A DNA stretch of 64,000 nucleotides from a bacterium (GCA_021847505.1 JAJZEO010000016.1:12177-76176); one strand, 5' to 3'; numbered from the stretch's first letter, positions 50,315 to 53,973 are shown. A program made the numbers and translations. Notes: generated by a model from the letters alone, not told the origin.

Positions 50315-50767
50315 ATGGATGCTTTAGGACAAAATAGGGGGCTAGGGCTTACTCTTACTGAAACTGTTCAGGAAATTGGAGACACCCTCTTTACGGAATG
50401 GCCAGAGTCCTTTCTGTATACTGCACTCTACATGATTCCTTTTGCAGGAACGGCCATTAAAGTTGTTGATTGGATAAGCCGGCTATGTAATGGCGTTTCT
50501 GGGCTTAAAAGTGAGGCCTCAAAGGGTAGGTTGTTAGAGTTTAGTAGCCAAATGGAAAAGCGGGCGCGTGTCATCACTCGAGAAAAGCAAGCCCAAGATG
50601 TGCTGTATATCGTGGCTAATCTCTTGAACCTTCTCTTCTTTTCTACTATAGTATCGCCCACATTTGAATTAGTGGCCGCGGCCTTAGCGCCCACGTTGGC
50701 GTGCGCTGTTGTAATGCTGGCTCTGGCTCAAAGGAATTACCAGCAACTGATCAAAGAAGCTCGATAG
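50315..50767 (+). CDS. Inc-like membrane protein, family member 1
   Basis: 150 aa with SD AAAGGAGAG upstream. Conserved 'LYMIPFAGTAIKV' motif and a ~45-aa bilobed hydrophobic region (VLYIVANLLNLLFFSTIVSPTFELVAAALAPTLACAVVMLALA). Confidence 0.55.
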   Translation: MDALGQNRGLGLTLTETVQEIGDTLFTEWPESFLYTALYMIPFAGTAIKVVDWISRLCNGVSGLKSEASKGRLLEFSSQMEKRARVITREKQAQDVLYIVANLLNLLFFSTIVSPTFELVAAALAPTLACAVVMLALAQRNYQQLIKEAR

Positions 50768-50852
50768 TAAAAATTTTTTGAATCAAGCAAAAGCCTTTCC
50801 TCTGGATAAATCGGCATAAATTTCTTATAATAGTTCCGAAGGACGGAGAGCT

Positions 50853-51611
50853 ATGGCCGGTTTTATTCAATTTCCCCCCATAAATGCGAATCAAGAGTGT
50901 GATCTCACCGAGCCTTACTTAGCTCAAAATTGGGCTCCTATGGAAGCCATGGAGCCTTATATTTCTCAGTGGTCAGCAAATTTAAAGACTTTGGCCCTAT
51001 ATACGGCACCTTTTGTTGGAACCCTCATTAAAATCAACGATGGAATCATCAATACTGTAAGCCTTTCGGTCCCACAAAGGACTTATTCCGTAGAAAGAAC
51101 TGTAAAGGAAAAATTTGAAGATTTGGAAGATCGTGTTGGCGAATTGAGAGTTAATGACGGGATTTTTCTTTTTTCTAGGGTCATTCATGCTGTCGCTCTC
51201 TTAATTTTAACCCCGATAAATCCAGAGATTGTCCTTGTGATTTTGTGTGCTGAGCTCTTTTTCACCGGATTGGTGTTTTTATATAGGAAGTTTGTGGCTA
51301 GAGCCGTCACCGATGAGTTATTAAAAACAGAGATGAAGGAAGATGGTCGCTGTTGTAATCTGATCTATAAATTTTCCAATGAAAACCATTTTGACACAAG
51401 ACGCGCAAAAAATCTTTTGACACTCATTAAAGACATTCTTATCAAAGAGAAAAAGCCCACTCCTGGAGGTTTTGAAACGGTATTTACACGTTTGGGTGCT
51501 CTAAAGGATGGGATGATCCCAAGATGCGAAAATTGGCCAAACTCTCATTTAAAAAAATCATTTGATTATATTGAAGCCCGTCTCCTTCAAATTCGTAATA
51601 ATGAATCTTAA
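50853..51611 (+). CDS. Inc-like membrane protein, family member 2
   Basis: 252 aa. 'LYTAPFVGTLIKI' motif and bilobed hydrophobic region (IFLFSRVIHAVALLILTPINPEIVLVILCAELFFTGLVFLY). Confidence 0.55.
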   Translation: MAGFIQFPPINANQECDLTEPYLAQNWAPMEAMEPYISQWSANLKTLALYTAPFVGTLIKINDGIINTVSLSVPQRTYSVERTVKEKFEDLEDRVGELRVNDGIFLFSRVIHAVALLILTPINPEIVLVILCAELFFTGLVFLYRKFVARAVTDELLKTEMKEDGRCCNLIYKFSNENHFDTRRAKNLLTLIKDILIKEKKPTPGGFETVFTRLGALKDGMIPRCENWPNSHLKKSFDYIEARLLQIRNNES

Positions 51612-51623
51612 TTGGTGACACAT

Positions 51624-51661
51624 TTAATTAAGATTTGATATAATAATCAAATCTTAATTAA
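51624..51661. promoter_or_regulatory. Perfect 16-6-16 inverted repeat immediately upstream of ORF 51665
   Basis: Arms ttaattaagatttgat and atcaaatcttaattaa flank the spacer ataata. TATAAT (51639-51644) spans the left arm/spacer junction. The right arm ends 3 nt before the ATG. Confidence 0.6.
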
Positions 51662-51664
51662 GGG

Positions 51665-52549
51665 ATGATCGTGGAAGTCACTTGTATACCCCCCGAGCCG
51701 AGAGAGCCACAGCAGCCTTATCCTCTGCCAAGATGTTGCACTGCCTATTCAGAGCTGAAAGAAGAGTATTCTGCCAATCGGAAAACCCACCTATTACAGT
51801 TTGCGGTCTTTCTTATTCCGATCATAGGAATGCTCTATAAAACCTATGAAGTGGTCTATTCCGCGGATAAGATTAAAGAAATTTCTGACGGCGCCATTAC
51901 CCAAGGCGAGGCTGATCTCAAAGTCAAAAAGGCGATCCGGAACCTTCAGGTGAGCGATTTCTTTTTTGGCATTGCCTCCGAAACCGAGACTTTTATAGCG
52001 GTTGGGTTTGGCTTTTTCTCTCTCCATCTACTTCCCTTTCTCATCATTTCTGTCATCATCAAGACCTGTTTGCTCTATTCTAATAAGGAAGGTCTTTACC
52101 AGGGATACTTGCAACAAATTAAGCAAGTAGAGCTCCCCGAACGCGCTGAGAAGACACAACCATCAACGGGAGAGTTGACTAATGCTGATTGGATTGATGC
52201 AGCGATTAATGGCCTAATCTATTGTATTCCCTACCTTGGCACAAAGATAAGATACGAGAATACTCTTCTTTCTAGAGCTGAGTATATCCATCCGGAGTGT
52301 TCTGGAAAGCGAAGAGAGCATTTGGAACAGATCCGAAATATTCATCGGGTGGCCTCTGTAGCTGCAAAAGCAATTTCGCTTACGATCATTTTCTCTCTTT
52401 GTAGTTTAATGATAGGACATCCTCTGGTCCTTACTGGGATCGCTGTGACTCTCATTGCTTCTGCCTATTTTTCTGGCAAGATCGACATTAAGGAAGTCTA
52501 CGCCAATGATCTCGTAGAGTGGAAGCGGCTTGCCCGTTTAAATAGTTAA
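51665..52549 (+). CDS. Inc-like membrane protein, family member 3 (two tandem modules)
   Basis: 294 aa. The motif occurs twice ('VFLIPIIGMLYKT' and 'IYCIPYLGTKIRY'), and a bilobed hydrophobic region follows each copy. Confidence 0.55.
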   Translation: MIVEVTCIPPEPREPQQPYPLPRCCTAYSELKEEYSANRKTHLLQFAVFLIPIIGMLYKTYEVVYSADKIKEISDGAITQGEADLKVKKAIRNLQVSDFFFGIASETETFIAVGFGFFSLHLLPFLIISVIIKTCLLYSNKEGLYQGYLQQIKQVELPERAEKTQPSTGELTNADWIDAAINGLIYCIPYLGTKIRYENTLLSRAEYIHPECSGKRREHLEQIRNIHRVASVAAKAISLTIIFSLCSLMIGHPLVLTGIAVTLIASAYFSGKIDIKEVYANDLVEWKRLARLNS

Positions 52550-52551
52550 GG

Positions 52552-53973
52552 TTGGTGCTCGGAAAAATGATTAACTCACTGGGATACATTCATTCTACAG
52601 ATCGGGCGTTTCCCCCTTATGAATTTCCAAAGGCTGCACCCAAAGAAGAGAGCTGCTTTCCCAATCCCTTAAAAAAAGTCTCCCAGTGGCTGGTAAATCT
52701 GGCGATTTGCCCCTTCATAGGAGGAGGAGGAAACCCCGATTTTTACAAAGATAAAATCGAAGAGATCAATGACTTTTATGGGGTCTCGATCAATCCCATT
52801 ACCCTCGGAAAGGATGGCGTAGAACTTGATGCTTTAACGATTGTTCCTAACGTTCAAAAAGATCTCCCCCCCGAACGGCAAAAGTGGTTGATTTTTGCAC
52901 TTCCTAATTCTGTAACCCACAATAATTCTGCATCTGAATTGTATCTTTTTTTGAATAGATTAGCATGCCTGACGGGGCTTTGCGTGGGTGTGACAAATTA
53001 TCGAGGATCTAGGCCTAATACATCTTACTTAACTTCAGTCAGTTATGAAGATCTCGTCGATGATGTCGATGCTCTTGTCGAGCACCTTACCATGGTCGAA
53101 GGTATTCGACCTGGCAACATCATTATGCACGGACTCTCTCTTGGCGGGATTGTGGGCATTGAAGTTGCTGCCCGTCATCAAAAACCAGGAGAAGAGATGC
53201 ACTATTTGGGGGAAAACACCCTAAATCAATTTGAACAAGTTGCAGGAGAATTTCTCTTGTCCGAACTTGTCGAAAATATTCTTCGATTTCTTATGTCTTA
53301 TAAAGAGCACAATGAGCTCTATTATCCTCCTTTGAGGAGGGCTTTGATTTCCGTTGGTGAAATGATTCACCTCCTCCCTTATTTAGCGTTACGTGTGACT
53401 CTGTTTGTTTTTTTCTTCTTTGAAGCGCTTTGTTTGACTGAATGGAGGCGCGCAGGGGAGGCTCTGTTCGAAATAGGGAAGAGTTTTGTTCTTTCCCCCT
53501 TAGTCTTGATTAACTCGGTGGCTCAGCTTGCCATGTTTCCTTGCCTAGATCTGATCGCCAATTTTAAAAAGATTGACACTCTCTTTGCGGATAAATTTGG
53601 AGAAACTTTACCCGGAAGGCTAATTCAATCTCGCACAGCCAGTGTCTTTGTAAAATTTTTAATCCGATTTTCTGAATGGAAGGCAGATGGAGAGAAGGCT
53701 TGGAACAAAATTCATGGGGAAAAGCTTGTTTCTCAAGTAGAGACGGATGACATTATCCCCTTTGCGGCTTCACTGTTCCACGCTGTGAATCCCGAGAGTG
53801 AGACTGATCCACAAACCTACCTTCAGCGCTCTCTTAGCTCTCATCATTGTACCTTTCTGGTCGAAGAAAATCCCCGTCAATTTTTTGAGTTTATCGAACG
53901 AGCCTTGCAGGTTGAATACGATGAAACTCTCAAGTCTAGATCTGGAGCAGAGATTTCAGAGTTTCTGCGATAG
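52552..53973 (+). CDS. Inc-like membrane protein fused to an alpha/beta-hydrolase (GxSxG) domain
   Basis: 473 aa (TTG at 52552, or ATG at 52567). Degenerate family motif 'LAICPFIGGGG', lipase/esterase nucleophile elbow 'MHGLSLGGIVG' (53131-53145), and C-terminal hydrophobic pair 'LLPYLALRVTLFVFFFFEALCL ... LSPLVLINSVAQLAMFPCLDLI'. Confidence 0.5.
   Translation: MVLGKMINSLGYIHSTDRAFPPYEFPKAAPKEESCFPNPLKKVSQWLVNLAICPFIGGGGNPDFYKDKIEEINDFYGVSINPITLGKDGVELDALTIVPNVQKDLPPERQKWLIFALPNSVTHNNSASELYLFLNRLACLTGLCVGVTNYRGSRPNTSYLTSVSYEDLVDDVDALVEHLTMVEGIRPGNIIMHGLSLGGIVGIEVAARHQKPGEEMHYLGENTLNQFEQVAGEFLLSELVENILRFLMSYKEHNELYYPPLRRALISVGEMIHLLPYLALRVTLFVFFFFEALCLTEWRRAGEALFEIGKSFVLSPLVLINSVAQLAMFPCLDLIANFKKIDTLFADKFGETLPGRLIQSRTASVFVKFLIRFSEWKADGEKAWNKIHGEKLVSQVETDDIIPFAASLFHAVNPESETDPQTYLQRSLSSHHCTFLVEENPRQFFEFIERALQVEYDETLKSRSGAEISEFLR

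Follow-up and report, generated by a model that had tools for sequence, protein, structure and literature searches.

Four consecutive genes at positions 50,315–53,973 of a 64,000-nt stretch of bacterial DNA (GCA_021847505.1 JAJZEO010000016.1:12177-76176; the whole stretch is called the window, and its numbering is used throughout) raise the question of whether they encode one tandem family of membrane proteins resembling the inclusion membrane (Inc) proteins of chlamydiae. An earlier note had proposed this, describing in each of the four products a short motif, P-[FIY]-x-G-[TM]-x-[IY]-[KR], and a bilobed hydrophobic domain after it. The four open reading frames (ORFs), here termed A to D, were found as described, co-oriented on the plus strand. 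As judged by their sequences, A, B and C form a genuine and new family, represented here by three genes and four modules, to which D does not belong. Whether the products of A, B and C are exported as Inc-type proteins is a separate matter and is weighed below.

Three genes and four modules

Expected numbers for the motif were calculated from the amino-acid frequencies in the window's 57 ORFs that reach 150 aa or more (20,657 residues). Against an expectation of 0.008, the strict pattern P-[FIY]-x-G-[TM]-x-[IY]-[KR] occurs four times, with all occurrences in A, B and C (PFAGTAIK, PFVGTLIK, PIIGMLYK and PYLGTKIR); these are the very instances given in the earlier note, and they are real. A relaxed pattern, with 0.42 occurrences expected, matched the same four sites, and when all six frames of the entire window were scanned with a comparable relaxed pattern, no further site emerged. 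The motif is followed after 33–46 residues by a hydrophobic block of 37–46 residues made of two helices, and A aligns with B across the motif (BLASTP, E = 6e-5). Because of the motif excess, the trailing hairpins and the alignment of A with B, the combination of motif and hydrophobic block in A, B and C is real and beyond chance. The succession of motif and bilobed domain therefore stands for these three proteins, and they are true paralogues by BLASTP and by hidden Markov model (HMM) searches.

The homologous module measures ~130 aa and is present in two copies in C. Its motif can be written as [YF]-x-Φ-P-Φ-Φ-G-x-x-Φ-[KR]. Across 30 complete modules drawn from at least seven lineages, position −3 is Y or F (23 Y, 7 F), P at position 0 and G at +3 are each present in 30 out of 30, and position +7 is K or R (26 K, 4 R), with hydrophobic residues filling the intervening positions; P and G are likewise invariant in a 25-module alignment. 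The motif is thus conserved well beyond this locus, a point on which the earlier note had made its proposal depend. The motif positions recur every 3–4 residues and would therefore occupy one helix face, suggesting a kinked helix that uses its conserved face to pack against other helices. In A to C the hydrophobic stretch around the motif extends over ~15–19 residues, contains P, G and T, has K/R at its ends, and appears short for a full membrane span.

Each module runs from an acidic, polar N-terminus through the helix-kink-helix of the motif and a basic helix of ~40 residues to a second conserved element, (E/R)-L-Q-V-[NS]-D, which stands at the start of the first helix of the hairpin. The N-termini of A to C are polar, acidic and predicted to be disordered, and they contain neither a hydrophobic block nor a Sec signal peptide. 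The hairpin helices comprise residues 95–113 and 117–140 in A, 103–121 and 128–148 in B, 104–120 and 124–140 in module 1 of C, and 229–250 and 254–272 in module 2 of C. They are joined by loops of 3–6 residues, namely SPT (A), INPEIV (B, with one Glu), HLL followed by P (C module 1) and GHP (C module 2), and are flanked by K/R/D/E.

The AlphaFold2 (AF2) model of A, calculated with a 23-module alignment, is all-helical (predicted local distance difference test (pLDDT) 86.4; predicted template modelling score (pTM) 0.80), with helices at 14–27, 29–40, 44–69, 77–112 and 117–149 and the hairpin turn at 113–116. P-x-x-G lies at the break between helices 29–40 and 44–69. In the model of C (six sequences; pLDDT 75, pTM 0.68), residues 1–26 are disordered; module 2 shows a helix break at 186–190, as in A, and the motif of module 1 lies within a continuous helix, 39–76. 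Foldseek comparison of both models with the PDB returned nothing below E = 0.4, the matches being generic helical bundles.

The four-module profile was then submitted to an exhaustive hmmsearch of 1.84 billion representative proteins at E <= 1e-3. The 19 matches are A, B, C and 16 relatives, which fall into length classes of ~150 aa (A-like), ~250–267 aa (B-like) and ~290–311 aa with two matched stretches (C-like). The eight relatives whose loci were read stem from uncultured metagenome-assembled genomes (MAGs) and metagenomes of wastewater and marine origin; one B-like member is found on TARA Oceans marine contigs with family neighbours on either side, and one related MAG comes from a Polish wastewater and river-water study (SRP286056). 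A word-indexed protein search with module alignments returned one to two ENA clusters and missed the cluster representatives of B and C, so that its negatives carry no weight.

Loci were read for eight relatives, six of which were looked up, while the family HMM equated P0015 and P0012 with the B-like ORF and the C-like ORF of L012, respectively. All eight occupy one slot, between thrS plus a gene for a 722-aa protein on one side and recDBC on the other. The order is thrS (−), the 722–747-aa gene (+), one to four A-like genes, one B-like gene, sometimes an extra A-like gene, one C-like gene, and recD-recB-recC (−), where the C-like gene is either adjacent to recD or a few other genes apart from it. 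As far as the contigs reach, this slot is kept in L008/L013, L010, L012, L014, L015 and L019. Orthologues of A are present in L013, L010, L014, L015 and L017, each of the related loci read has one B-like orthologue (P0015, 16, 19, 20, 23, 26), and the two-module orthologues of C are P0011–P0014. Judging by these loci, the family is found in one clade of uncultured environmental Chlamydiota only; its restriction to chlamydiae is read from synteny, the protein library itself carrying no taxonomy.

A neighbour-joining tree of 31 modules resolved four clean groups (A-like, B, C module 1 and C module 2), and the duplications are therefore older than the divergence of every lineage sampled. Copy number varies for the A-like genes only, from 0 (a pseudogene) to 4. 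The local expansion put forward in the earlier note accordingly applies to the A-like genes, but not to the division into A, B and C modules, which is old. In comparison with L012, the neighbouring genes are 71–89% identical, whereas B shows 39% and C 54% and A is reduced to a pseudogene remnant; in comparison with L013, the neighbours show 50–80% and A, B and C 32%, 31% and 43%, respectively. A to C are the fastest-evolving genes of the neighbourhood. The remnant in L012 (GCA_964477345.1, 11041–11470) is a frame-broken A-like sequence between the 722-aa gene and B; its N-terminal piece, MGFTFSETVKEISNAIVDD, is read in one frame and its C-terminal piece, LMIALAQKNYCELV, in another, which points to decay of A in a sister lineage.

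For A to C there was no match in Pfam, NCBIfam, PHROGs, PADLOC or PDB, and the claim that the motif is new, being absent from all five, was borne out. An hmmscan of Pfam with A to C and all 23 modules yielded no recurrent family, IncA-type families included, the best scattered matches having E >= 0.002, and a PDB sequence search with the family profile gave nothing significant. Spurious ORFs were rejected as an explanation, given the conservation of reading frames and invariant residues in at least seven lineages, and holin and defence-system readings were dropped as neither PHROGs nor PADLOC had matches for A to D.

Possible export to the inclusion and its alternatives

The identity of the host genome was read from marker features. 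A 715-aa GreA fusion in the window matches NF004969, which we take to be the chlamydial GreA fusion model, end-to-end (870.9 bits; cut-off 697), and the window also encodes a 544-aa double-domain ThyX, a TyrP permease and two Legionella_OMP-like porins, all presumably hallmarks of chlamydiae. By these features the genome is chlamydial (Chlamydiota). Rfam and tRNA scans detected no rRNA in the window.

Putative Inc proteins have been defined by two transmembrane (TM) helices of 15–32 residues separated by a loop of <30 residues (3–22 in known Incs); the loops are rich in P/G/N/S/T and uncharged, there is no conserved prokaryotic domain, and occurrence is restricted to chlamydiae (PMC3048545). 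About 90% of such candidates had a functional N-terminal type III signal (PMC3048545). A, B and C agree with every computable element of this definition by Dehoux et al. 2011 (PMC3048545). Their bilobed domains have loops of 3–6 residues in Kyte-Doolittle scans, with helix-turn-helix structures at the same places in the AF2 models; loops and flanks are of the expected composition, apart from the Glu in the loop of B; they contain no conserved prokaryotic domain and, judged by synteny, are confined to chlamydiae; and they lie in a genome assigned to the Chlamydiota on marker features. In this sense the Inc-like character proposed in the earlier note is upheld. The N-termini are compatible with a type III secretion signal, though not diagnostic of one. 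We regard A, B and C as candidate type III-exported Inc-type proteins and put the probability of this reading, the best of those weighed here, at about 0.5.

The likeness to Incs comprises the chlamydial genome, the restriction to a lineage, the want of a Sec signal peptide, one or two bilobed domains with a short P/G/S/T loop and charged flanks, and tandem genes with rapid sequence divergence. In contrast, A to C resemble none of the described Inc families in sequence, and their hairpin lies 95–105 residues from the N-terminus instead of the usual 30–60. They also possess an extra conserved element ahead of the hairpin (the motif helix and LQV[NS]D), whereas most Inc families conserve hydrophobicity only. 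The family, new by sequence, would fit within the known and very heterogeneous Inc kind.

The layout of A has a precedent in CT101/MrcA, a protein of 153 aa with segments at [38-56] and [95-113]6[119-138] (PMC3048545) that localises to the inclusion (PMC5854415). A has 150 aa with segments at ~[30-52] and [95-113]3[117-140], coordinates alone being compared. A hydrophobic segment, ~40 aa and a hairpin within ~150 aa are common to A, CT101/MrcA, CPn0243 and CPn0049, and the N-termini of CPn0243 and CPn0049 are type III secretion signals (PMC3048545). For CT101 and CPn0312, in contrast to A to C, an N-terminal signal peptide is predicted. None of the small Incs or Inc candidates with a hydrophobic segment plus a hairpin (CT101/MrcA, CPn0312, CPn0242/CPn0243 and CPn0049) was among the 19 matches of the four-module profile at E <= 1e-3.

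If A to C are exported, the N-terminus would serve as the type III secretion signal and the hairpin, like that of Incs, would be embedded in the inclusion or vacuole membrane that derives from the host, so that both termini, the basic helix and the 100-aa tail of B would face the host cytosol. The motif helix would pack against the hairpin at the cytosolic leaflet or, alternatively, against a paralogous module, and A, B and C with their four modules may act together. That the four modules form one hetero-oligomeric membrane complex through the Y/P/G/K face and intramembrane charges such as E108 and K133 of C module 1 is a more specific proposal that we consider improbable. If true, the complex might act as a pore or channel or as a scaffold that shapes membranes, in the inclusion or the inner membrane, and would be a type of membrane-protein module not described before, limited to one uncultured clade of chlamydiae.

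Several observations weigh against export. Some predicted Incs were found on bacteria only (PMC3048545), and these amount to about one third of those with antibody data by our own count from Table 4 of that study. The charges of A to C fit equally well a bacterial protein with three TM segments, in which the acidic N-terminus is outside and the basic loop inside (6–9 K/R precede the hairpin in A to C, with 9 in A), followed by the hairpin and a C-terminus inside; the positive-inside rule is obeyed for this N-out three-span topology. One-to-one orthology and a gene order that is fixed from marine to wastewater lineages would suit a housekeeping membrane complex, and so would the conserved intramembrane residues E108 and K133 of C module 1. 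Moreover, the AF2 models differ in that the motif breaks the helix in A and in C module 2 but is embedded in an uninterrupted one in C module 1, and the assignment to the phylum rests on marker features, not on phylogeny.

The main rival reading is that A to C are non-secreted proteins of the bacterial inner membrane with three spans each, belonging to a lineage-specific complex in which the 722-aa protein possibly takes part. The motif region is TM-like in hydrophobicity in several relatives, as well as helical without interruption in C module 1, where the intramembrane Glu and Lys are invariant, and all related loci that reach far enough show the same gene order, with the 722-aa gene adjacent. 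Against it count the length of the hydrophobic stretch at the motif, which is short for a span, and the absence of any homologue outside the clade among the 1.84e9 representatives. A to C are also the fastest-evolving genes of the neighbourhood, with A lost in places and variable in copy number, and in the window an opposite-strand gene parts the 722-aa gene from A. We view an inner-membrane location as possible, though less likely than export. If A to C are indeed not secreted, they would serve as a warning for the prediction of Incs from hydropathy in environmental chlamydiae.

The 722-aa gene, which carries an invariant Cys motif, could also be seen as the source of a toxin or enzyme, with A to C as a membrane immunity or antidote array. 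Small, divergent membrane proteins encoded in tandem directly after a large conserved protein and in the same orientation are reminiscent of the immunity arrays that follow polymorphic toxins or pore-forming bacteriocins, and the A-like copy number of 0 to 4 would be in line with this. The 722-aa protein is, however, conserved (54–74% identity in L012, L013, L010, L014 and L015) and syntenic like a core gene, and it carries no toxin, Rhs, contact-dependent inhibition (CDI) or type VI secretion system (T6SS)-associated domains in library scans. B and C are strict one-to-one orthologues, not shuffled cassettes, and A to C are devoid of the PADLOC or PHROG matches mentioned above. We deem this explanation very unlikely.

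To return to the Inc reading, it is mainly through Inc proteins that chlamydiae interact with their hosts. Outside the Chlamydiaceae only a very small number have been characterised, and sequence conservation beyond hydrophobicity is rare among them. A to C would offer a tractable handle, as they combine invariant positions and a module duplication with a genomic slot that stays the same between marine and wastewater lineages; their profile can be applied to new MAGs, and defined residues and a three-gene set are available. The scope is narrow, comprising one uncultured clade.

Gene D and its probable hydrolase fold

The earlier note had counted D as the fourth member of the family, with LAICPFIGGGG as a fifth, degenerate instance of the motif. 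Neither part of this was sustained. The family HMM gave no match at E <= 10 with D or with any of the D-family loci, and hhalign of the family (23 modules) against the D family (five sequences) returned a probability of 0.1%. Among the orthologues of D only Φ-C-P-[FY] of the stretch is kept and the Gly is not; the equivalents of PFIGGGG in its homologues are PFMRNGG, PFVRSGG, PFQFFPC and PYQFFTS. The hydrophobic block follows only 216 residues after this stretch and lies inside a probable α/β-hydrolase domain. It consists of two segments, aa 270–297 and 311–336, with a charged linker of 13 residues between them. The segments lie between the nucleophile and the Asp/His and therefore appear to be an insertion in the hydrolase fold (aa 270–336).

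Residues invariant in five homologues of the D family are G189-x-S191-x-G193, D394 and H427, in the canonical order nucleophile, acid, His; D394 and H427 are assigned as catalytic Asp and His by position only. Library matches are weak: Abhydrolase_6 (E = 7.6e-4, 20.6 bits; cut-off 26.3), NCBIfam SdbBC (NF045526; E = 4.8e-5, 22.7 bits; cut-off 400) and NCBIfam CPn0927_CPn0928 (NF042907; E = 4.3e-4, 19.3 bits; cut-off 200). The PDB matches, such as the MARTX ABH domain (6imp; E = 6.8e-5), span the elbow region only. D is probably a separate membrane-associated α/β-hydrolase, an esterase or lipase. With the CPn0927/CPn0928 family, the Legionella Dot/Icm effectors SdbB/SdbC and the MARTX ABH domain (6imp), all of which, like D, are from intracellular bacteria, it has in common the GxSxG elbow and, probably, the α/β-hydrolase core. 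It differs from these in having its own N-terminal Φ-C-P-[FY]...D-[FY]-Y and the 65-residue hydrophobic insertion, and its NCBIfam scores are far under the cut-offs.

Only three orthologues of D were found (70, 53 and 36% identity). D is missing from every syntenic A-B-C cluster, and D-like genes of related genomes lie elsewhere, adjoining genes for enoyl-CoA hydratase (ECH) and E1 dehydrogenase (E1_dh) and serS, often as a tandem pair. By this comparison of loci, the position of D beside C is specific to the lineage of the window and is a recent placement next to the cluster. In the tandem pairs a 516–518-aa paralogue stands beside the 460–472-aa orthologue (L003, 174–1058; L005, 8374–9924; L007, 481–2037), and the longer paralogues have an additional N-terminal hydrophobic segment ahead of Φ-C-P-[FY]. 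Translation of D from a TTG at 52552 would give 473 aa and from the ATG at 52567 gives 468 aa; the latter is probably the true start because the N-termini of the D orthologues match it.

That A, B, C and D are nonetheless one paralogous family with a P-x-x-G motif and a bilobed domain is refuted at the level of sequence and profile, and we give it practically no credence: the hydrophobic Φ-C-P-F-I-G stretch of D at a similar distance from the N-terminus and its two adjacent hydrophobic segments are outweighed by the failure of HMM and hhalign, the unconserved Gly, the charged linker that splits a hydrophobic pair set between the nucleophile Ser and the Asp/His, and orthologues that reside at another locus, outside all syntenic clusters.

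Coordinates and neighbouring genes

The positions of the features are collected in Table 1. Exact copies of the A, B and C sequences are present on a 132-kb contig in the NCBI metagenome-assembled genome GCA_027452445.1.

Table 1. Genes, motifs and hydrophobic hairpins of the region, in window coordinates.
Feature	Position	Strand	Description	Basis
Gene A	50315..50767	+	150 aa, single-module minimal member	ORF call; family HMM E = 1.8e-34
Gene B	50853..51611	+	252 aa, one module and C-terminal extension	ORF call; family HMM E = 4.5e-35
Gene C	51665..52549	+	294 aa, tandem modules aa 29-157 and 167-294	HMM domains E = 4.2e-40, 3.6e-28
Gene D	52567..53973	+	468 aa, probable α/β hydrolase, non-member of the A-C family	ATG start
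A motif PFAGTAIK	50438..50461	+	aa 42-49	
B motif PFVGTLIK	51009..51032	+	aa 53-60	
C module 1 motif PIIGMLYK	51818..51841	+	aa 52-59	
C module 2 motif PYLGTKIR	52229..52252	+	aa 189-196	
A two-helix hydrophobic hairpin	50597..50734	+	aa 95-140, turn S-P-T	Kyte-Doolittle scan, AF2
B hydrophobic hairpin	51159..51296	+	aa 103-148, turn around T-P-I-N-P-E	
C module 1 hydrophobic hairpin	51974..52084	+	aa 104-140, invariant intramembrane E108, K133-T134	
C module 2 hydrophobic hairpin	52349..52480	+	aa 229-272, turn G-H-P	
722-aa gene	46819..48987	+	conserved hypothetical, upstream of the A-B-C cluster	
407-aa gene	48976..50199	-	between the 722-aa gene and A, window lineage only	

The C-terminal extension of B is ~100 aa long and rich in charged residues. 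Matches to sigma-70-like −35/−10 elements on the plus strand in the A-B spacer (50803–50831; score 10/12) and the B-C spacer (51615–51644; score 11/12 with an extended TG) hint at separate promoters, although a promoter and terminator scan of the region gave counts no higher than the shuffled expectation.

The upstream flank in the window consists of thrS (−), the 722-aa hypothetical gene (+) and a 407-aa hypothetical gene (−), and the downstream flank of recD, recB and recC (all −). In every related locus that reaches that far, the 722-aa gene is directly upstream of the cluster and co-oriented with it. Its product has no Pfam, NCBIfam or PDB match but many invariant residues, R-Q-S-V-G-S-C-F-A-T-A-P-L-M and later S-P-V-H-A-F and D-T-N-W, which presumably resemble a papain-like Q/C/H/N arrangement. 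The opposite-strand 407-aa gene separates the 722-aa gene from A, and obligatory co-transcription is therefore excluded in the window. None of the syntenic loci has this gene, and among the clustered proteins of the collection it stands alone as a singleton; its product has a weak eukaryote-type IQ calmodulin-binding motif (aa 18–34, E = 0.009, below cut-off) and may be a lineage-specific effector candidate.

The pair of porin-like Legionella_OMP (PF05150) genes is adjacent at 34008–36412 (−), and a third copy occurs in the L008 cluster region, between the C-like gene and recD. At the other end of the window, positions 1–16000 have 35% G+C compared with ~44% elsewhere and carry glycan-modification genes, namely a GT25, two GT10 fucosyltransferase-like genes, two FkbM-type methyltransferases and a DUF268 (Caenorhabditis family). 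This segment looks like a horizontally acquired surface-glycan island ending at uvrB.

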